64,000 nt of DNA from Clostridia bacterium (GTDB lineage: Bacteria > Bacillota > Clostridia > Oscillospirales > CAG-272): contig JAFQEG010000003.1 in assembly GCA_017399145.1 (NCBI GenBank), positions 50,553 to 114,552 of the forward strand. The letters are read 5' to 3'. Shown here one piece after another: positions 1,500-16,184 of the stretch. Position 1 is the stretch's first letter, and every line of letters starts with the position of its first letter. The notes beneath the pieces are model-generated. The model saw nothing but the letters and a program-made list of their open reading frames with translations. It had not been told where the DNA came from and searched no databases. Position numbers and translations under genes: made by a program.

Positions 1500-2387
1500 T
1501 TAATCAATACGTTCCTTGCCCATAAAGAATAGTGCAACTGTACCAGGTCCTGAGTGTGAACCGATTGTAGTGCCTATGTTATTCATTAAAACCTTGCCCT
1601 TTAGGTTAGGGAATTTTTCTTCAACTAATGCCTTTACTTGACTTGCACACTCATAAGCATCTGAATGGGAAATGTAGCATCTACCACTATAATTATTCCC
1701 GTCGTCTGCGTTTTCTTCCATTTTCTTAACAATTTGCTTAATAGCGTTTGCTTGACCTCTAATTTTCTCTCTTGGAATTAGCTTTCCATTTAGGTCAACG
1801 TTTAATAGTGGACAAATTTTTAAAACTGTGCCAAACCATCCCGCTACCTTAGAAACTCTACCACCCTTTACGTAAAAGGTTAAGTCCGTTGAGAAAAACC
1901 AGTGATGTACTCTTTTTCTGTTGTTAATTGCCCACTCATAAAGTGCGTCAATATCCATTCCGCTGTCACGTCTGTCTGCTAACTCGTCGGTTAGAAGTCC
2001 CATGCCAGAGGACGCACCTAAGGAATCAACAACTAAAATCCTTCTGTCAGGATACTCCTCTTTCAATTCCTCAACTGCAATTTTTGCAGAGGTCATAGCC
2101 CCAGATAGTCCTGAGGAAAGCATCAAGTGAAGAATGTCCTTACCCTCGTCTAAATAGGGTCTAAAGAACTCCTTTATATCGTCTACGTTAGGCTGAGAGG
2201 TTTTTGTATCTGCCCCATCCTTCATAAGCTGATAAAATTTGTCATAGCTAAGGGCTTTGCCCATATCGTCTTTATTTTCTTTTCCATCGATGAAGAATGA
2301 AAACCTTAAAAAGTCAATGCTTCTTGATTTCAAATGCTCAGGACTTACGTCACAGGTTGAGCATGTTGTAATTACATAATTTGCCAT
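1500..2387 (-). CDS. DegV family protein (fatty-acid binding)
   Basis: ORF 1500..2471. ATG at 2385-2387 (MANYVITTCSTCDV) preferred over the upstream GTG. DegV-like length and GSHSGPG motif near the C-terminus. Confidence 0.8.
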   Translation of the reverse strand: MANYVITTCSTCDVSPEHLKSRSIDFLRFSFFIDGKENKDDMGKALSYDKFYQLMKDGADTKTSQPNVDDIKEFFRPYLDEGKDILHLMLSSGLSGAMTSAKIAVEELKEEYPDRRILVVDSLGASSGMGLLTDELADRRDSGMDIDALYEWAINNRKRVHHWFFSTDLTFYVKGGRVSKVAGWFGTVLKICPLLNVDLNGKLIPREKIRGQANAIKQIVKKMEENADDGNNYSGRCYISHSDAYECASQVKALVEEKFPNLKGKVLMNNIGTTIGSHSGPGTVALFFMGKERID

Positions 2388-4532: not shown

Positions 4533-6373
4533 TTGTCGCTATCGTCAAGCTTAAGCACTGCCATAAATGCCTCAGGTGTAACCTCAACCGAGCCGAGACG
4601 ACGCATCTTCTTTTTACCCTCTTTTTGCTTTTCTAGAAGCTTTTTCTTTCTTGTAATATCACCACCGTAGCACTTAGCAAGCACGTCCTTACGAAGTGCC
4701 CTTACGGTTTCTCTTGCTATTACCTTAGAGCCAATTGCAGCTTGAATTGGGATTTCAAATAGCTGACGGGAAATATTGTCCTTTAGCTTCTCTGCTATTC
4801 TTCTAGCACGTGCGTACGCCTTTTCTGAATGTACGATAAAGGTAAGTGCGTCAACCACCTCGCCATTAAGCAAGAAGTCAAGCTTAACAAGATTGCTAGG
4901 CTCGTAGCCTGCAAGCTCATAATCAAGAGATGCATAGCCCTTACTTCTGCTCTTTAGTGCGTCAAAGAAGTCATAAACTATTTCGTTAAGTGGCATTGTA
5001 TAGTAAAGCTCAACTCTTTGAGAATCAAGATATTTCATATCCTTAAAAATACCACGTCTATCCTGACAAAGGTCCATAATTCCACCTACGTACTCGGTTG
5101 GTGTAATTATGCTTGACTTTACAGTTGGCTCGTATGCCGTTGCAATAGAGTCTGGGCTTGGATAGTTAGATGGGTTATCTACAAATACAGTTTCGCCATT
5201 TGTTTTTTCAATCTTGTAAATAACACTAGGTGCAGTTGTAATTAGGTCAAGATTAAACTCTCTTTCAAGTCTTTCTTGAATAATTTCCATATGCAAAAGT
5301 CCAAGGAAGCCACATCTAAAGCCAAAGCCAAGCGCAATTGATGTTTCTGGCTCGAAGGATAGTGCTGCATCATTAAGCTTTAGCTTGTCAAGTGCGTCAC
5401 GAAGGTCGTTGTACTTAGCGCCATCAGCTGGGTATATACCAGAAAACACCATAGGGAGTGCTTCCTTAAAGCCCTTAAGTGGCTCGTTTGTTGGGTTTTC
5501 ATCATGAGTTACGGTATCACCTACTCTTGTTTCGCTAACTGTCTTAATACTAGCTGTGATATAGCCAACCTCACCTGCAGAAATAGAGTCCGCTTTTTCA
5601 AGTCCAAATGCACTTAGGTGACCTACCTCGACAACGTCGTATTTTGCGCCAGTGCTCATAAGACGGATTTTGTCACCTGCCTTAAGGGTGCCGTCCATTA
5701 CTCTTACGTAAACAACAACACCTAAATATGCATTGTAATGTGAGTCAAATATCAAGCACTTAAGAGGTGCAGATTCATCGCCCTTAGGGCAAGGAATCTT
5801 TTCAACGATTGCATCAAGGACCTGGTCAATATTTAAGCCTACCTTAGCAGAAACTGCAGGGCAATCCTCGGCAACAATGCCGATTACGTCCTCAATTTCA
5901 TTTCTTGCCCTGTCAACGTCGGCTGAAGGTAAATCAATTTTGTTAATTACAGGCACTATCTCTAGGTCGCAATCAACTGCAAGATACGCATTAGCTAGAG
6001 TTTGCGCCTCAATGCCCTGTGTTGAGTCAACTACTAAAAGTGCGCCCTCACAAGCATTGAGTGAGCGAGAAACCTCATAGTTAAAGTCAACGTGGCCGGG
6101 GGTGTCGATAAGGTTTAAAACGTAATCCTGTCCGTCCTTGTGTTTATAGTTTATTCTTACAGCCCTTGCCTTGATTGTAATACCTCTTTCTCTTTCAAGG
6201 TCCATATTATCAAGGAGTTGCTCTTCCATTTCACGCTTGCTAACTGCGTTAGAATATTCAAGTATTCTGTCTGCAAGGGTTGACTTTCCGTGGTCAATAT
6301 GAGCAATTATGGAAAAATTTCTAATATATTTTTGCTTTTCGTTCACTTTTTTAAGTCCTTTCGAAAAATTCAT
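4529..6373 (-). CDS. lepA: Translation elongation factor 4 (LepA)
   Basis: [28 protein letters not shown] and NKID GTPase motifs, plus a LepA-type C-terminus. The start is uncertain (ATG 6373, GTG a few codons later, or track start 6406). Confidence 0.9.
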
Positions 6374-6424
6374 AGATATTTTATCACAAATAATAATTAT
6401 ATACAAGTATTTTTTTCAAACAAA

Positions 6425-6452
6425 ATAAAAAAGGGTATTTCTACCCTTTTTA
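6425..6452 (-). terminator. Intrinsic terminator after the DUF975 gene
   Basis: Stem AAGGGTA/TACCCTT with loop TTTC, flanked by A- and T-runs, immediately after the stop at 6453-6455. Confidence 0.6.
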
Positions 6453-7094
6453 TTAATCCTTTGTTGACCTAACAGGTTGTTCATCAGGTGTAACGAACTC
6501 TGCAAAATCTCCATCTACAAGTGTTTTATAGAAGGTAGCCTCTGATGCTTGAATGTATGGTGTAATCCAAAAATATCCAATGCCAAAGGTTAACATACCA
6601 ACTATATGCCAGCCAATAAATGAGAAATAAAGCTTGAATAATCTCCACTTATTGCCCTTCATCAATCTTGCACTCTCGCCCATTGCCTCTGTAACAGAAT
6701 ACTCTGGGTGGTCTGCTCTTATGTAGAAGGTCATTGAAAGCATAAGCTGAATAATTATACCTGGGATTATAAAGAAAAAATAACCTAATGAAACGGCAAG
6801 GCTAATCAAAATGCTAGTACCAACAGAATTTATAAAATCCTTTTCAAAGCCACTGAAAAGTGTGCCTGCAACGTCTGTATGTTGTTTTCTTGCTAGTAAT
6901 AAAAAACAACTATAAAAGCCAAAGGTCAAGGGACCTGTCAACAATATACTAAGCATACCCATCGAAAAGCCTGCAACGGCACCATTAACTAAGCTAAACA
7001 ATACATACGCAAGTAATCCCTTCATCCACTCGGTTGCAAAAATGCTACCACCTAGGGATTCTCTTGCTAACGCTCTAATTTCTTTACTTTTCAT
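6453..7094 (-). CDS. DUF975-family integral membrane protein
   Basis: MKSKEIRALARESLGG N-terminus followed by several hydrophobic segments, typical of DUF975. ATG 7092-7094 is preceded by AAGGAGG. Confidence 0.7.
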   Translation of the reverse strand: MKSKEIRALARESLGGSIFATEWMKGLLAYVLFSLVNGAVAGFSMGMLSILLTGPLTFGFYSCFLLLARKQHTDVAGTLFSGFEKDFINSVGTSILISLAVSLGYFFFIIPGIIIQLMLSMTFYIRADHPEYSVTEAMGESARLMKGNKWRLFKLYFSFIGWHIVGMLTFGIGYFWITPYIQASEATFYKTLVDGDFAEFVTPDEQPVRSTKD

Positions 7095-7240: not shown

Positions 7241-7897
7241 ATGAAAATTACAGGTGCAATTTTTGATATGGACGGCACATTGCTTAACTCAATGGATTAT
7301 TGGGGCAAGGTTGCAACAGAGTTTTTGACAAAAAACGGCTATGATGCTACAAATGATGACAACAGACGCTTTTTAGAGCAAGGCATGCGTGAGTTTTACG
7401 CCTACGCAACCACTACCTTGGGTATGACAAAAAGCTACGATGAGGTCCACGACGAAATATACAATTTGATAAGAGAAAAGTATGAAACGGTGGTAAAGCC
7501 TAAGGACGGTGCTATTGAAATGCTTGATGCCCTACTTGAAAAGGGTGTTAAAATGTGTCTTGCAACTGCAACCGACAAAGAAACAGTTGAAATAGTTTTA
7601 AAGCGCCTCGGTATGGAAAAGTATTTTTCTAAGATATTCACAGTTAAAGAGGTAGGAATTGGCAAATCTCAGCCTAAGATTTATCAGCTTGCCCTTGAAT
7701 ATTTAGGCACTCCTAAAGATAGCACCTACGTTTTTGAGGATGCTTACTATGCTATTAACACAGCGCACTCAAATGGCTTTTTAGTAGTTGGCATTTATGA
7801 CAAAAACGTATTCGTGTCAAAGGAAGAAATCAAAAAGCTATGCGATTATTACATAGACGAAAATGACCGATACAATATTGATTTTTTACTAAAATAG
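7241..7897 (+). CDS. HAD-superfamily hydrolase (subfamily IA, beta-phosphoglucomutase-like)
   Basis: FDMDGTLLNS motif I, a later TA(T)xx and a ...EDA motif; GAGGAGG RBS. Confidence 0.75.
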   Translation: MKITGAIFDMDGTLLNSMDYWGKVATEFLTKNGYDATNDDNRRFLEQGMREFYAYATTTLGMTKSYDEVHDEIYNLIREKYETVVKPKDGAIEMLDALLEKGVKMCLATATDKETVEIVLKRLGMEKYFSKIFTVKEVGIGKSQPKIYQLALEYLGTPKDSTYVFEDAYYAINTAHSNGFLVVGIYDKNVFVSKEEIKKLCDYYIDENDRYNIDFLLK

Positions 7898-10860: not shown

Positions 10861-10951
10861 GGAGAATTCGCCTAGTTGGTCGAGGGCGCACGATTGGAAA
10901 TCGTGTAACCGGTAACACGGTTCCAGAGTTCGAATCTCTGATTCTCCGCCA
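10861..10951 (+). tRNA. tRNA-Ser (anticodon GGA), CCA encoded
   Basis: Hand-folded cloverleaf: acceptor GGAGAAT/ATTCTCC, anticodon stem CACGA/TCGTG with loop TTGGAAA, long variable arm, T-arm CAGAG-TTCGAAT-CTCTG, discriminator G plus CCA. Confidence 0.9.
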
Positions 10952-10985: not shown

Positions 10986-11205
10986 TTGGCTATGAATCAT
11001 CGTTCGAACTTCTGCTCGTGGCTTTGCCACGAATAGAGTTCACAAGTGCGACGAAAGACGGTGGTAGGGGTTCCCCAACACGAAGAGTGAGTTTTGGGGG
11101 TTCTCGTGGGCTTGCAAGCAAAAGTCTCGGCGCAACTCATTTCCACAAGGGAATGTATCTCTGATTACAATAATTGGCTCATTTTAAATCATCACTCGCC
11201 TTTTT

Positions 11206-12216
11206 CTATAATACTTTGTACTTTTCAAGTCCGTATTCTTTATAGGTTTTATAATATTGCTCTAAGAATAATTCGGGTTGCTTTACAAAATCCTCCCCGT
11301 TTGCCAAGGATACAATTTCATATGCCTTTTCAACAGCTTGCTTGCACTTATCAATGTCATTTAGTTTAAAATAACAACCTGCTATTTGCAAATAGCAGCA
11401 CATATGATTTGTTTGGACTCCATTAAATAGATATGCTTCGGGACATATTTTGTCTGTTAGCATAAATCTTTCGATTACATCCTTGCCTTCTATAAATGAT
11501 TTTAAAGCATTTTTGTAATCGCCTGTTTCAAAGTATCCTTCGCCCTCCATTATGCAAGATAAGAAAAGCTCTTGGTATTCGATAATTTTCCAGTCCTTCG
11601 CTTCTTTAAGCCTATCCTCTCCCTTCAAGGAATAAGAGGAAACACGCATTTTATCGTTTAACAAATACGGATACATATATGGCAAGGTATCTATTATTTT
11701 TTTTGCATCATTATATCTGTTTTGCATTAAATACAGTGAGGCTAAGTCTGCTTTGGCACTACAAACACAGAAAATATCAGTAGCTTCTGCAATTATTTTG
11801 TGTGCCAAAGAAATTGCCTTATCTGCGTATTCAGTTTTTCCATATGTGCGTATATGGCACTCGTACAGAGAAAGAAGCTCTCGTAAAATCAAATCATTGT
11901 TGGGATAATCGTTTAATGCGTTTAAAAGTATTGCCTCGCATTTTTCAATATTGTTCCAAAAATATTTTTTTGAACTTGTAATAATATCATTTACCTTTTG
12001 AGCAGTTTTGGTTTTATCATATCCCATCAAAATGTCGATACTAACATCAAAAATATTTGCTAATATCGGAATAGCAGTAATATCAGGATAGGCAGTTTCT
12101 GTTTCCCACCTCGATATTGTTTGTGGTGTCACATTTAGCTTTTCTGCAAGCTGTTCTTGTGTCATATTATCACGCTTGCGTAACTCTTTAATTTTTGCAC
12201 CTATACAAATAGTCAT
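11206..12216 (-). CDS. XRE-family HTH transcriptional regulator with C-terminal TPR-like repeat domain (RNPP-like architecture)
   Basis: N-terminus IKELRKRDNMTQEQLAEKLNVTPQTISRWETETAYPD (HTH_3). About 270 aa of helical-repeat sequence with TPR-like signatures (NRYNDAKKIIDTL, GDYKNALKSFIEG, LNDIDKCKQAVEKAYEI). AAGGAGG RBS. Confidence 0.8.
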   Translation of the reverse strand: MTICIGAKIKELRKRDNMTQEQLAEKLNVTPQTISRWETETAYPDITAIPILANIFDVSIDILMGYDKTKTAQKVNDIITSSKKYFWNNIEKCEAILLNALNDYPNNDLILRELLSLYECHIRTYGKTEYADKAISLAHKIIAEATDIFCVCSAKADLASLYLMQNRYNDAKKIIDTLPYMYPYLLNDKMRVSSYSLKGEDRLKEAKDWKIIEYQELFLSCIMEGEGYFETGDYKNALKSFIEGKDVIERFMLTDKICPEAYLFNGVQTNHMCCYLQIAGCYFKLNDIDKCKQAVEKAYEIVSLANGEDFVKQPELFLEQYYKTYKEYGLEKYKVL

Positions 12217-12282
12217 AAAATATTCCTCCTTGTTCTAAACGACAGGAGCGAAGCGAACCGGTTCTCTCGCTTTGTCAACTTA

Positions 12283-12311
12283 ATTATATCATACCATATA
12301 TTACATAACAA
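12283..12311 (-). promoter_or_regulatory. Promoter of the XRE-TPR regulator gene (extended -10)
   Basis: Minus strand reads TTGTTA (12306-12311), 17 nt, then TGATATAAT (-10 at 12283-12288). The predicted transcript starts at the imperfect hairpin 12241-12276 (core palindrome GAACCGGTTC). Confidence 0.5.
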
Positions 12312-12340
12312 TGGCATATTTGTTGAAAAAAATAAATTTT

Positions 12341-12369
12341 AAGTTGAATTTTGAAATTTCAAGTTGAAT
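12341..12369. repeat. Direct repeat AAGTTGAAT x2 with 20-bp phasing (candidate operator)
   Basis: Exact 9-mers at 12341-12349 and 12361-12369 with similar T-rich flanks, in the divergent region between the regulator gene and the 108-aa ORF. Confidence 0.5.
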
Positions 12370-12410
12370 ATTTTAGTTCGATTTTCATCTCACTTGCTCC
12401 GCCAAATAAG

Positions 12411-12453
12411 AACCGCAATTCTGATACAAAGGGATTGCGGTTTTTGCTTTTTT
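12411..12453 (+). terminator. Terminator-like hairpin with no upstream plus-strand gene (leader attenuator or sRNA 3' end)
   Basis: AACCGCAAT-(14 nt)-ATTGCGGTT followed by TTTGCTTTTTT. It overlaps the -35 region of an extended -10 promoter (TGATATAAT, 12455-12463) for the next ORF. Confidence 0.5.
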
Positions 12454-12486
12454 GTGATATAATGATTTTAGAAAGGTGGTGGTCGT

Positions 12487-12813
12487 ATGTTTCCTTTTGA
12501 AAGTATTGCAAAACTCTTCTCGTTTAATTTTGATGAGAAATACTGTATTGAGATAGAGTTCTCGATTAAAGGATACCCTAAGTATCAATTTTGTTGGATG
12601 GGCAAAATGCCTGATAAAGAAAACACAGAAAAAGAATTATATTGGTATGGGCTAACTTCCGATGGTTCTGAAGCATACGATTACGATAATTTTCAGGATT
12701 TTTACTCGGCGCCTATCTTTGATGGAAAATCCATCAAAGAAATTTGGGATAAGGTTGACTTGTTATCCATAGATGGTTGCGACCCAAAGGAACGACTTGC
12801 TGTGTATCTTTAA
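12487..12813 (+). CDS. Hypothetical small cytoplasmic protein (108 aa)
   Basis: ORF with a good RBS (AAAGGTGGTGG 5 nt before the ATG); no signal peptide; no family recognised. Confidence 0.6.
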   Translation: MFPFESIAKLFSFNFDEKYCIEIEFSIKGYPKYQFCWMGKMPDKENTEKELYWYGLTSDGSEAYDYDNFQDFYSAPIFDGKSIKEIWDKVDLLSIDGCDPKERLAVYL

Positions 12814-12987
12814 CCATTATTATGTATTTGACAATTGCTAAACATATCGCTTTTATTCCCAATGGGGGCTTTTATAAAAACGCGATTGCTAATCGCTAGG
12901 TGACAAACGCAACCTATAGTTTGTTGTAAAAGACTTTCACTTGTAGTAAAATTTGATTGTAAAATACTTTTGAAAAGGGAGTACCAA

Positions 12988-13848
12988 ATGAAAAAAACAG
13001 TATTAATTTTGTTGGTTATTGTGTTTGTTTTTTCATTCACATCGTGTTATCCTGGAGACAACAATCCAGAAGAGATCGAAGCAATGTTTAATTCGTTCAA
13101 TCACTCAGATGATTATGTCCTTTTAACTCACTTTCAACTAATAGTAAAGGGTGAACATTATAATCGTTCCGAAATTAAGTACAATGAAAAGGAAACTAAT
13201 ATCATTTTCCTAGATGAAAATGGATTTTATTCATATACCTTTAACAAGTCTAACCTATTCGTCGAATTCTTATATACAACATATGATGACTTTGTAGTGA
13301 CAAAATTAGGCGAAGCTACCTTGCCTGAAAAAATAATAAATGGTTATTACGGCGATAATTGCTTTTGGTTTAGAATGGACGATCCATCTACTGACGAATT
13401 CAAACAAATTCATTATCGTTGGAACACCTTAAATAAAACAGGTAGTATTGTCGAAAGCGTTGATGATAATTATGAATATTCAGCAAATAATAACAGGGTA
13501 AATAATTATACCTTTAATTATCAAAACAAGCTGTTTGACAAGGTTTTAGAAATTGTTGATAACGACACAAGGATTAAAAAAACAATTGACAAGTCCATTT
13601 TGAAAAGCTTTGAAGAAGGAAAAAGAATTAGTGAATCTAATTCAAGCACAATTTTTTCTCCAGAGCAGGTGTACGTAATTGATGATGATATTTACTTTGT
13701 TTCAGGGCTTGGAGTAGGTGTTCTTAGCGAGCCACACTATTACTACATTGTAAAATGGAATTTTAATACAGAGGAATGTACATTCATAACTTCGATTTAC
13801 TTCGATTATTTTCAAGAATGGGTAGATGATTTTATAATATTAAAATAA
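12988..13848 (+). CDS. Hypothetical lipoprotein
   Basis: MKKTVLILLVIVFVFSFTSC gives a signal peptide with lipobox F-T-S-C. AAGGGAG RBS 6 nt before ATG 12988. N/Y/D-rich mature part with no recognised domain. Confidence 0.75.
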   Translation: MKKTVLILLVIVFVFSFTSCYPGDNNPEEIEAMFNSFNHSDDYVLLTHFQLIVKGEHYNRSEIKYNEKETNIIFLDENGFYSYTFNKSNLFVEFLYTTYDDFVVTKLGEATLPEKIINGYYGDNCFWFRMDDPSTDEFKQIHYRWNTLNKTGSIVESVDDNYEYSANNNRVNNYTFNYQNKLFDKVLEIVDNDTRIKKTIDKSILKSFEEGKRISESNSSTIFSPEQVYVIDDDIYFVSGLGVGVLSEPHYYYIVKWNFNTEECTFITSIYFDYFQEWVDDFIILK

Positions 13849-13900
13849 TTAAAATATTTTAAAGAGACAAGGGCCATCTCCCCTATCTCTGTTTTAGTTA

Positions 13901-13940
13901 AAAAGCCATAGTCAAGGCAATGCTTGACTATGGCTTTTAT
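13901..13940. terminator. Bidirectional intrinsic terminator
   Basis: AAGCCATAGTCAAG-gcaatg-CTTGACTATGGCTT (14-bp stem) with flanking A/T runs, between the stops at 13848 (+) and 13943 (-). Confidence 0.8.
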
Positions 13941-13942
13941 TT

Positions 13943-14338
13943 CTATAAATCTATTGTATACAAGCAATCTTTTTCCATGTTGGCAAGAAATGCGGATAGA
14001 GATATATCGTTTATACTTATGCTTTTTTCATTTTTTACTTTTCTGCCTGCCCATGCAAGTGCTATGTAGATATGCTTTACAGCCTTTGTATTTTTCAATT
14101 CATTTATAAGTGATGCAAGCTCCTGAATTTCCGTTGCATTTTCGTCATGCTTCCCCGTTGGAAAATCGCAATCGCACTGCCGATTGGTCATACTGTAATC
14201 TCCCAAATCGTTCACAATGCACATCTTAACGTTGTGCTTCGTACCTATAGCAAGCTTATATTTTGATTTTTCTAAAGCCTTGCTATAATCTTCAAAGCTT
14301 ACAGTCTCATCTGTTGCGCCATATAAAATGTAACACAT
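13943..14338 (-). CDS. Hypothetical protein (131 aa)
   Basis: AAGGAG RBS 8 nt before ATG 14336-14338. Begins MCYILYG and contains CDCDFPTGKHD. No family recognised. Confidence 0.6.
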   Translation of the reverse strand: MCYILYGATDETVSFEDYSKALEKSKYKLAIGTKHNVKMCIVNDLGDYSMTNRQCDCDFPTGKHDENATEIQELASLINELKNTKAVKHIYIALAWAGRKVKNEKSISINDISLSAFLANMEKDCLYTIDL

Positions 14339-14456
14339 AAAATTATCTCCTTATTTTACGCTTTTGATTAATTAAATTATAACATAATATACAAAGCATT
14401 TCAACACTTGATTTTCTCCTGCTTCTATGTTAAAATTCCTTTATGGGGGTGATATT

Positions 14457-15437
14457 ATGTGTACTCGAAAATGTGCTAAGTGTGGTTCTTCACTTGATGA
14501 AAACTTTTATCTTTGTAGGGATTGCTACCAAGATGAGCCACTCAAGTATATTCGTTTTTTGGTTTACAATATCGACGAGGATTATTCAAGAGTTTATGAC
14601 TATGTAAGCACGGATATCTACTACAACATTCTTGAGCATATCTGTGGGAATTTTGTTGTTTTGGCAAAAGATACTCTTCCCTATTTTATGCCTTGTGACA
14701 TTGAGCTTTTGCCTCTTACGGATTTCGAGGAGAGCAAGCTGATACAAAGAGCTTATACAAGAGGTTATCCTAAATCATATCTACTCAACAAATACAACGA
14801 AATTTCCACCATTTACATAGATTTAAATGGAAAGCACTATATTTCCAAAACGCCATATAGTAATTATGACACGAAGGATATTAATGAGGATTGGTTTTTG
14901 AAGCCTAGTCCTAGATATTGCCTAGATTGTGATGCACCGACAAAATCAGACGAATATTATATTTGCACTAACTGCTATTACAATTTTGATTCCCATGATT
15001 TTGATTTATACTACAAGTACAATATGAAATCTAACACCTTTACAAGGCTATGCGCAGAATTTGAGGGCAGATACACCTGTATTGACGGTCACCGAGTAAA
15101 AAGTCGTGGTGAGGAATTTTTAGACAATTATTTTTTCATAAATGATATCAAGCATTCCTACGAGCCAAAATTGAAGATTAAAAACGACCTTGGAGAAATG
15201 GTTGACATAACACCCGATTTTTGCATTTACAAGGAAGACGAGTTAGTTTATCTTGAATATTGGGGTGTAACCAACAATCCAAAATACGAACGCGACAAGA
15301 AATTGAAAATGTCTGCCTATAAAAAGCTTGGTGTTACTCTTATTAACATATACAGCACAGGTCCTTCTTTAACCGAGGAATTTATCAAGACACTATTATC
15401 AACATACGAAAAGGGTAAAATAAACTTCGAGGAATAA
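14457..15437 (+). CDS. Double zinc-ribbon protein with C-terminal restriction-endonuclease-like (PD-(D/E)xK-type) domain
   Basis: ATG 14457 with GGGGGTG RBS. Two CxxC-x10/11-CxxC-Y motifs (CAKCGSSLDENFYLCRDCY; CLDCDAPTKSDEYYICTNCY). The C-terminus reads KSRGEEFLDNYF..YEP..DITPDFCIY..LVYLEYWGV..DKKLK..YKKLGVTLINIY. Confidence 0.7.
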   Translation: MCTRKCAKCGSSLDENFYLCRDCYQDEPLKYIRFLVYNIDEDYSRVYDYVSTDIYYNILEHICGNFVVLAKDTLPYFMPCDIELLPLTDFEESKLIQRAYTRGYPKSYLLNKYNEISTIYIDLNGKHYISKTPYSNYDTKDINEDWFLKPSPRYCLDCDAPTKSDEYYICTNCYYNFDSHDFDLYYKYNMKSNTFTRLCAEFEGRYTCIDGHRVKSRGEEFLDNYFFINDIKHSYEPKLKIKNDLGEMVDITPDFCIYKEDELVYLEYWGVTNNPKYERDKKLKMSAYKKLGVTLINIYSTGPSLTEEFIKTLLSTYEKGKINFEE

Positions 15438-15438
15438 T

Positions 15439-16122
15439 ATGAGCTACAACAAAATTATTGATGGTATGGGCTTAGGCTATGGGTCTAAGTATCAGCTTTT
15501 AAGAATGTTAGGCTGGCACAGAAATGATTTTAACAAAAGGATTTTAGACTCTGTTGGCCTTTTGGGGAATATAAATTGGATTGATTTCGGCTACAATGGG
15601 TCTCAAGACAAGGAGCTTTTAAACTTCGATTTCATTCCTGAAATAAGCGAGGTATGGAAGCAATTTTGGGTATGTGGCAATACAGGCATTAACTGGGACG
15701 CAGTTGGAATCTTAGACGATGGCACGTACATTTTAGTTGAAGCTAAGGCGCACATTGACGAGGCAAGAAGCTATCCTTCTGGTAGCTGTAGATCGCAAGA
15801 AAAGAACAATTTACGAATAAAGGCATTTTTGGAAAAATACAATATTGATACAACCGTTGAAGCTATATGTAATGGTCATTATCAACTAGCTAACCGTTTA
15901 GTTGCATTAGATTTTCTAATCAGTCGGGGCTACAAGGCTAAGCTTGTTTACGTGCTTTTTGAAAATGGCTATGAGCTTAACACTCCATACAACAAATCCG
16001 CAACGAGAGATGAATGGCTAAGAGAATTTGACAATACTCTTTCAAAATTAGGATTTAATGATAATAAGGTAAGTGACCTTATCAATCTATGCATTATAAA
16101 TTGTAATATCAAAGAGACCTGA
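15439..16122 (+). CDS. PD-(D/E)xK nuclease-fold-like hypothetical protein
   Basis: Starts 1 nt after the preceding stop. Core motif WDAVGILDDGTYILVEAKAH (D...E-x-K). No other domain recognised. Confidence 0.65.
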   Translation: MSYNKIIDGMGLGYGSKYQLLRMLGWHRNDFNKRILDSVGLLGNINWIDFGYNGSQDKELLNFDFIPEISEVWKQFWVCGNTGINWDAVGILDDGTYILVEAKAHIDEARSYPSGSCRSQEKNNLRIKAFLEKYNIDTTVEAICNGHYQLANRLVALDFLISRGYKAKLVYVLFENGYELNTPYNKSATRDEWLREFDNTLSKLGFNDNKVSDLINLCIINCNIKET

Positions 16123-16135
16123 TGGTCTCTTTTTT
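16113..16135 (+). terminator. Intrinsic terminator of the two-gene cassette
   Basis: AGAGACC-tgat-GGTCTCT followed by TTTTT. The TGA stop (16120-16122) sits in the loop. Confidence 0.75.
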
Positions 16136-16155: not shown

Positions 16156-16184
16156 TTGACATTATATTTTAAATATAGTATAAT
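16156..16184 (+). promoter_or_regulatory. Consensus sigma-A promoter of the uxaBAC operon
   Basis: TTGACA (16156-16161), 17 nt, TATAAT (16179-16184), 40 nt before the uxaB ATG. Confidence 0.7.

Follow-up and report, generated by a model that had tools for sequence, protein, structure and literature searches.

The nearest described counterparts of the locus discussed here come from several groups of nucleases. R2 retrotransposons carry a Cys-rich zinc element just ahead of a PD-(D/E)xK nuclease domain. T7 endonuclease I, archaeal Bax1 (Pfam DUF790) and RecU are junction or repair nucleases, and RecB/Cas4-type nucleases (ACE1, Exo5, AdnAB) have a D ... E-x-K ... (Y)Q arrangement with the last element on a helix. 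A type II restriction-modification (R-M) system includes an adjacent cognate DNA methyltransferase. In addition, the PADLOC database contains PDC models, whose member genes lie inside BREX, DISARM or type I R-M loci and which the source preprint proposed on this basis (guilt by embedding). Here, we describe two adjacent forward-strand genes, gene 1 (14457-15437) and gene 2 (15439-16122), in a 64,000-nucleotide stretch of DNA from a Clostridia bacterium (assembly GCA_017399145.1, contig JAFQEG010000003.1, positions 50,553 to 114,552), hereafter called the window; coordinates given without a locus name are positions in it. On the strength of nuclease folds, conserved motifs, operon structure and non-co-occurrence, all obtained in this analysis, we consider the chances about even that the locus is a small accessory operon of two evolutionarily independent, probably autonomous PD-(D/E)xK metal-dependent nucleases. 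An original prediction made from the DNA letters had proposed a single undescribed two-gene defence or restriction-type module. What it observed was confirmed, and its interpretation was partly supported.

The C-terminal domain of gene 1 (15072-15434) is supported as a restriction-endonuclease (PD-(D/E)xK) fold in which a non-canonical E-x-W replaces E-x-K, a modelled assignment suggested by the core order of its AlphaFold2 model, by Foldseek matches and by aligned motifs. Residue numbers of gene 1 follow the 336-aa open reading frame (ORF) that begins at 14427. The model had a predicted local distance difference test score (pLDDT) of 84-97 over residues ~225-336 and was poor in the N-terminal two thirds; the order of elements in the domain, alpha-beta-beta-beta-beta-alpha-beta, is the classic one and agrees with the alpha-beta-beta-beta-alpha-beta core of PD-(D/E)xK enzymes. 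Foldseek matched the domain to Bax1, the R2 restriction-like endonuclease domain, AF1548 and bunyavirus/arenavirus cap-snatching endonucleases with a probability of 0.99-1.0 (E 1.3e-3 to 1e-2). When the family profile was compared with the PDB, Bax1 (E=0.011) and T7 endonuclease I (E=0.16) were recovered, and S226-x-x-E229, Y245-E246, P263-D264-F265 and the h-E-x-x-G element (E277-Y-W279-G280) were in register with both enzymes, which also share the helix/strand order. The assignment of the S-x-x-E / PDF / hEYwG order to a restriction-endonuclease fold in the original prediction was thus borne out residue for residue. Gene 1 differs from these enzymes in that Trp replaces the catalytic Lys (K67 of T7 endonuclease I aligns to W279, and the canonical (D/E)-x-K lysine is absent), zinc ribbons are located upstream, and there is no XPB helicase partner. 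DUF790 was weakly matched by 4 of 45 gene 1 family members, and sequence E-values to T7 endonuclease I and Bax1 were weak (0.011-0.19), implying fold-level kinship and not family membership.

Two zinc ribbons of the predicted CxxC-x10/11-CxxC-Y form were present in gene 1. The first (14472-14525; C16-x2-C19-x10-C30-x2-C33-Y34) had a weak DZR_2 match (E=0.0014) and was kept in homologs P0121 and P0123; the second (14919-14975; C165-x2-C168-x11-C180-x2-C183-Y184) lies directly upstream of the nuclease domain. Pfam and NCBIfam scans of gene 1 yielded weak zinc-ribbon matches only. C165, C168 and C180 were invariant in the gene 1 alignment (A2), and C165 was nearly invariant in the 45-sequence family alignment. 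In the latter, D220, G221, V224, S226, E229, Y245, E246, E277, Y287 and Y298 were invariant, and H222, D233, H243, D264, F265, G280 and K294 were conserved in at least 90% of sequences; K294 is located on the helix that follows E-x-W-G. Full-length homologs were limited to four in a word-indexed search of 5.8 billion proteins. An exhaustive profile search detected 3,919 cluster representatives at E <=1e-3 (765 at <=1e-10), which have the second zinc ribbon and the C-terminal domain in common. One weak match to the domain was found in GenBank phage genomes.

Likeness to named defence candidates was confined to this domain. The C-terminal 110 residues of gene 1 matched the PADLOC models PDC-S69 (1.6e-17), PDC-S68 (1.8e-9) and HEAT_CxxC_PD-DEXK (3.7e-6), all of which share the ~120-aa nuclease domain; the last also shares a CxxC element ahead of the nuclease. 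True PDC-S69 proteins, either ANT/KilAC fusions of 288 aa or shorter proteins of 224 aa, match the whole profile (E ~1e-104 or 1e-75; positions 2-287 at E ~1e-104), whereas gene 1 spans positions 166-269 of 289 and is not a full-length member. Neither PDC-S69 nor HEAT_CxxC_PD-DEXK turned up in literature searches. In addition to ANT/KilAC, the domain was fused to HEAT and UDG domains, and it was fused or adjacent to UvrD-family helicases on plasmids and forms the C-terminus of PDC-S68 profiles (~1200 aa); the suspected link with UvrD-family helicases is therefore real. The view that the locus fits no named defence system is only partly right, since the gene 1 nuclease domain is covered by these candidate models. 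Similarity to the restriction-like endonuclease domain of R2 was also detected (Foldseek probability 0.98-1.0, identity only 14-16%); gene 1 has no reverse transcriptase and belongs to a completely different organism and biological setting.

Two plasmid loci illustrate the association with helicases. On a Polaromonas plasmid (L079, 4391-7617), a gene-1-type nuclease domain is part of a UvrD-helicase protein located behind a topoisomerase-type C4 zinc-finger protein, and on a Methylotuvimicrobium plasmid (L080, 2445-6330) the protein that contains it (296 aa) is encoded directly after a UvrD helicase. Both have the look of PDC-S68-related helicase-nuclease modules. Several names and matches offered for gene 1 or its relatives were not adopted. 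A Gloeobacter phycobilisome linker was its top PDB sequence match (E=4e-8, summed over three repeats of ~1.5 each); it covers the low-confidence middle region and was dismissed as compositional or spurious. The name glycerol kinase, given by NCBI/UniRef to 220-330-aa relatives P0277, P0278, P0284, P0296 and P0362, looks like an apparently propagated misannotation: an FGGY kinase domain was present in none of the five, four had no precomputed Pfam domain, and P0296 had only ANT (PF03374). The name phage antirepressor YoqD-like reflects an N-terminal ANT domain, which is absent from gene 1.

Gene 2 (227 aa; ATG at 15439, TGA at 16120-16122) codes for a stand-alone predicted nuclease. Its family is predicted, with strong motif support, to be a new divergent member of the PD-(D/E)xK superfamily. 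Scans against Pfam, NCBIfam, PADLOC and PHROGs were negative, also for all 56 family members at E-values up to 1, and the only PDB sequence matches, obtained with both the single protein and the family profile, were to RPRD1 and were judged spurious. At least 125 clusters of homologs, ~225-250 aa in length and nearly all unnamed, were detected. A pattern-limited scan of 185,579 species genomes recovered 51 loci, distributed among Clostridia, Bacilli, Tenericutes, Bacteroidota, Cloacimonadota, Chloroflexota, Ignavibacteria, Gemmatimonadota, Verrucomicrobiota, Alphaproteobacteria and one Thermoplasmata archaeon. The family signature is WD...EAK[H/N]xxE...YQxxNR...W. Across 52 loci, the residues W86-D87, E101-A102-K103, E108, Y148-Q149, N152-R153 and W193 were invariant or nearly so, and D87, E101 and K103 were invariant in 51, the sole exception being a truncated ORF.

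The catalytic core of gene 2 (15694-15762) reads W86-D87 ... E101-A102-K103-A-H105 ... E108, and its helix motif (15880-15897) reads Y148-Q149-L-A-N152-R153. The D...E-x-K core suggested at the outset was found, and both this core (WDAVG...LVEAKAH) and the C-terminal block of gene 1 are conserved in homologs far beyond chance. In the AlphaFold2 model (pLDDT 91.5; predicted template modelling score 0.89), D87 is located just before strand 88-91, E101 and K103 end strand 97-103, and Y148-Q149 open helix 148-162. A conserved acidic/acidic/Lys triad, D...(D/E)-x-K, is thus placed on adjacent strands, as in PD-(D/E)xK enzymes. The top PDB and viral Foldseek matches, none of them significant, were mostly PD-(D/E)xK nucleases (BstEII, ACE1 of the Cas4 family, NucS, Exo5, AdnAB, DdmDE, SduA, Bax1, McrC and OkrAI).

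Gene 2 shares with RecB/Cas4-type nucleases the order D ... E-x-K ... (Y)Q on a helix, and its YQ motif resembles the QxxxY of RecB-family enzymes by position. However, neither these nucleases nor BstEII were matched significantly (E >=0.016, template modelling score <0.3), the motif is YQxxNR and not QxxxY across the 52 loci, and a helicase or Argonaute partner is absent. The four-Cys Fe-S cluster of Cas4/RecB is likewise missing: none of the invariant or near-invariant columns of the 56-sequence gene 2 alignment is a cysteine. The family is further distinguished by a conserved N-terminal helix pair, GYGSxYQLLRxLGxHR. With regard to type IV restriction (cleavage only of modified DNA by a solitary gene lacking a methyltransferase), relatives of gene 2 were observed as solitary genes and, in L050, co-located with GmrSD-like genes. 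The proposed check for a nuclease fold supported one for gene 1; gene 2 showed conserved catalytic residues, and its individual structure matches were not significant.

The two ORFs are translationally coupled in one transcription unit. As originally described, the TAA of gene 1 (15435-15437) and the ATG of gene 2 are separated by 1 nt; the Shine-Dalgarno sequence of gene 2 (GAGGAA) is located within the 3' end of gene 1. A promoter-like site (14408-14436, forward strand; TTGATT-17-TAAAAT with an extended TG, a pattern match from a consensus scan) precedes gene 1, and an intrinsic terminator (16111-16135, forward strand) follows gene 2, with a 9-bp stem and a 4-nt loop at 16111-16132 and then a T-run. 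The TGA of gene 2 does lie inside the loop, as read from the sequence. Downstream, a 12/12 perfect promoter at 16156-16184, found in the same type of scan, heads a sugar-acid (uxa-type) operon. A promoter-like site and a terminator of its own, followed by a separate downstream promoter, indicate that the gene pair forms its own transcription unit. The mechanical ORF of gene 1 (14427-15437, 336 aa) most likely overstates its length. The preferred start, ATG 14457 (326 aa), is suggested by a Shine-Dalgarno sequence (GGGGGTG, ~14445-14451) ahead of it and by homologs P0121 and P0123, which begin at the equivalent Met; the alternative ATG 14427 falls within the promoter-like site, which is immediately 5' of this Shine-Dalgarno sequence and ATG 14457.

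Co-occurrence of the two families was then assessed. None of 56 metagenomic gene-1-family loci had a gene-2-family ORF within 3 kb, and no gene-1-family ORF was present near gene 2 at ~45 gene-2 loci outside the window's clade. Among 52 non-redundant gene-2 loci, a gene-1-family ORF was detected only in the window and its own clade (L001/L014). Gene 1 homologs P0123 (44% identity) and P0124 (33%) also lack a gene-2 neighbor, and comparison of the two families with hhalign revealed no profile-level relationship. Because the families part company outside this clade, the pair is a lineage-specific juxtaposition and not a dedicated conserved two-component system. The idea of one conserved two-gene module, which the original prediction had agreed to give up if homologs were not syntenic with each other, thus fails beyond the immediate relatives.

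Within the clade, the picture is different. The pair was found only in close Clostridia relatives and always at one chromosomal site, just upstream of a mannitol-dehydrogenase/altronate-dehydratase/UxaC operon. A Clostridia metagenome-assembled genome (MAG) from roe-deer rectum has both genes (82% and 72% amino-acid identity for genes 1 and 2, respectively), and the pair also occurs on clade contigs L065 and L081. Stop-to-start spacing was 1-4 nt in all four clade members. Relative to the L001 orthologs, the ratio of nonsynonymous to synonymous substitutions (dN/dS) was 0.12 for gene 1 (dS 0.86) and 0.14 for gene 2 (dS 1.37), and dS of the genes flanking the pair (0.72-1.15) was similar. Low dN/dS and a dS like that of the flanking genes imply that the pair is functional and vertically inherited with the locus. 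In L065, the gene 1 ortholog (4991-6037) was called as a 348-aa protein that overlaps the gene 2 start (6001-6660) by 37 nt; this could reflect a lost stop codon or a differing gene call.

Relatives of gene 2 occur in a variety of genomic neighborhoods. The upstream neighbor may be absent or may be a WYL/Rrf2 regulator overlapping the start, a Fic, HepT or HsdS gene, or a housekeeping gene. All-against-all BLAST and Pfam analysis of 149 flanking genes identified no conserved neighbor. Since neighbors vary freely and the flank census covered 147 different Pfam families, gene 2 is a dispersed solo gene, and its neighborhood is defence-flavored but not defence-exclusive. Defence-related settings include Flavobacterium sp. 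RSSB_23 (L050, 4310-16167), in which a distant relative and two GmrSD-like type IV restriction genes lie, in this order, between HsdM-HsdS and HsdR of a type I R-M locus; another Flavobacterium (L056), in which it follows YhcG and HsdS; coupling to a WYL regulator in L010; in L018, a WYL-like gene located two genes upstream of the relative; and an Azospirillum plasmid island with DUF3320, WYL and PD-(D/E)xK genes, beside a replication gene and IS66 elements. Two small, related siphovirus-like IMG/VR contigs carry a relative with 37-41% identity (L069, 2763-3440; L070, 2229-2918), immediately downstream of tail-assembly-chaperone genes and before further tail genes. This slot is typical for phage accessory genes or free-standing endonucleases. 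These were the only two among 2.9 million viral contigs in a pattern-limited scan, and no relative was found in GenBank phage genomes. Several Bacillota loci adjoin tRNA genes.

Some minor features of these loci were also observed. In L010 (1471-16687), the WYL-coupled relative lies in a long co-directional run of genes mostly lacking Pfam domains, and including DUF3990, DUF2130 and DUF2779, which is a possible uncharted defence island. In L007, three tandem copies (1458-1832; 96-100% identical, period 118 bp) abut and overlap the 3' end of tRNA-Leu(cag) (1813-1899, reverse strand), with a solo gene-2 relative a few hundred bp further downstream, and are perhaps remnants of repeated integration at the tRNA. 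Unusually short DnaE-like PHP-polymerase ORFs of 685-710 aa occur within two genes of a gene-2 relative in two different phyla (L018, 9283-11415; L021, 5962-8019). A dnaE-like gene as a recurrent partner of gene 2 was considered and dropped; the two ORFs have 25% identity over the N-terminal 300 residues and occupy different positions, and their recurrence is probably a coincidence.

How two autonomous nucleases of this kind might act can be outlined as follows. In gene 1, the zinc ribbons would bind nucleic acid and tether the T7-endonuclease-I/Bax1-like catalytic domain, and K294 may stand in for the positive charge of the missing E-x-K lysine. Because its closest analogs cut branched or structured DNA, gene 1 may be structure-selective. 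Gene 2 would be a compact single-domain DNase with the order D87 / E101-x-K103 / Y148-Q149 and no conserved Fe-S cysteines, in which the GYGSxYQLLRxLGxHR helix pair probably aids substrate binding. Both nucleases would degrade foreign DNA of phages or plasmids, the likeliest role given that the families are patchy, often occur in mobile or defence contexts and have no cognate methyltransferase. Without an adjacent methyltransferase, ATPase or antitoxin, self-DNA would be spared by substrate selectivity (DNA structure or modification) or by regulation. A defence role of both nucleases is our best single guess and is plausible but unproven.

Several observations weigh against an accessory defence operon of this type. 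The lysine position of gene 1 is occupied by Trp (E-x-W-G; family consensus IEHWG), and for gene 2 no individual Foldseek match was significant (best E=0.016, template modelling score <0.3). For the PDC candidates of PADLOC, the source preprint reports no tests. Many gene-2 relatives directly follow housekeeping genes (rpoD, a dnaE-like gene, surE, biotin carboxylase, FtsX permease), and in six Dehalococcoidia species the relative is syntenic between a thiamine pyrophosphate enzyme and an aminotransferase. Among the 149 flanking genes, defence families appeared just 2-3 times each (GmrSD_N 3; Methylase_S, PDDEXK_4 and WYL 2 each). As for the suggested defence islands, some relatives lie in defence-like settings (R-M, WYL and phage tail contexts), and many others are beside housekeeping genes. 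In the window's clade, the pair is stable, vertically inherited beside the sugar-acid operon and not visibly mobile. Finally, tight translational coupling could still mean joint action in this lineage.

The last point is the core of one alternative, a clade-specific two-nuclease system recently assembled from two autonomous parts, in which, for example, the zinc-ribbon protein recognizes or nicks foreign or structured DNA and gene 2 processes it. The short spacing in four clade members with a shared promoter and terminator, the overlapping ORFs of L065 and purifying selection on both genes across dS ~0.9-1.4 are all consistent with such a system, but each family overwhelmingly occurs without the other and the upstream neighbor of gene 2 varies freely, so we regard it as unlikely. 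We give a similarly low probability to a bolder version, in which gene 2 founds a phylum-spanning single-gene defence-nuclease family and, in this clade, recruited a zinc-ribbon T7-endonuclease-I-like partner to form a two-nuclease immunity module; gene 2 would then be an insertable gene, R-M-embedded, WYL-regulated and phage-carried, and the low estimate applies to these proposals jointly. It is also rather unlikely, though deserving attention, that both genes are housekeeping or accessory repair or recombination nucleases, one structure-specific (like T7 endonuclease I, Bax1 and RecU) and one end-processing (like RecB/Cas4), and not immunity genes at all. The nearest structural or profile relatives of gene 1 (Bax1, T7 endonuclease I, RecU), the weak matches of gene 2 to NucS, Exo5 and AdnAB, the housekeeping neighborhoods and Dehalococcoidia synteny of gene 2, and the proximity of some loci to umuD/umuC-type genes all point in this direction. 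On the other hand, the distribution of gene 2 is very patchy (51 loci in the species-genome scan), the flank census identified no conserved repair partner, and relatives are located within R-M loci, plasmids and phage contigs.

Mobile nucleases offer a further explanation, in which a selfish, free-standing endonuclease of the homing type, or the remnant of a mobile element, landed beside conserved genes; this would apply to gene 2 and perhaps to gene 1 as well. Solo nuclease genes abutting or overlapping the ends of rpoD, the dnaE-like gene and surE, the relative between conserved phage tail genes and the loci adjoining tRNA genes would fit. Yet no introns, inteins or flanking repeats were found, each recovered locus has one family member, viral contigs with relatives are as rare as noted above, and, unlike in fast-decaying homing endonuclease genes, the catalytic residues stay unchanged across very deep divergence and orthologs are stable and vertical within clades; we consider this explanation improbable. 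Still less credible, and very unlikely, is a type II system in which one protein, or each of the two, is an orphan restriction endonuclease and the methyltransferase is encoded elsewhere in the genome. Although both proteins have a restriction-endonuclease fold, and BstEII, the best but insignificant structural match of gene 2, is joined by OkrAI, no methyltransferase is present in the operon or flanks here or in most relatives, and it is rare for type II enzymes of different phyla to remain ~30% identical and share one invariant set of motifs.

The reading as two independent nucleases places both proteins as new members of a very well-known superfamily. The catalytic domain of gene 1 is already modeled in PADLOC as a candidate, and the gene 2 family, although unannotated in the four profile libraries searched, is mechanistically unsurprising. 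Should this family prove to be a stand-alone defence nuclease, the list of compact single-gene systems would grow by one, and a conserved family of Bacillota, Bacteroidota, Chloroflexota, Pseudomonadota, further phyla and an archaeon, which databases have left blank, would gain a name and a function. Gene 1, in turn, presents the PDC-S69/PDC-S68 nuclease domain as a portable module behind zinc ribbons and ANT/KilAC, HEAT, UDG and UvrD-helicase domains, a portability that helps in the design of tests on these candidates. Tight coupling of two nuclease genes is insufficient to call them a system, and co-occurrence needs checking.

The surroundings of the pair in the window agree in part with what had been proposed. 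Absence of an adjacent methyltransferase, helicase or ATPase was upheld by profile scans of the neighbors; in particular, Pfam, NCBIfam and PADLOC scans of the four genes upstream of the pair gave no significant methyltransferase match, and the genes downstream code for sugar-acid enzymes. An AT-rich accessory stretch was weakly visible: GC content was 0.31-0.35 over 11200-14600 and 0.34-0.38 over the gene pair, but flanks overlap this range (0.35-0.44). The tRNA to which the region had been linked, tRNA-Ser(gga), is present at 10861-10951, but 3.5 kb upstream of the pair. Position 14339, taken as the start of the cassette, is merely the end of the divergent upstream gene. This 131-aa gene (13943-14338, reverse strand) has no detectable homolog in the related MAG L001, in which an 80-aa HTH_3 (Xre-type) gene fills the corresponding slot (7278-7520). 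A 108-aa ORF at 12354-12929 is likewise unmatched in L001; the two positions are variable slots in an otherwise syntenic block. A 336-aa regulator with HTH_3 and tetratricopeptide repeat domains (11206-12216, reverse strand) adjoins tRNA-Ser(gga) and matches PADLOC RmrA and the NCBIfam spr1629 repressor/antitoxin family via its N-terminal helix-turn-helix. In L001, the tRNA is located on the opposite side of this regulator, which points to a local rearrangement.

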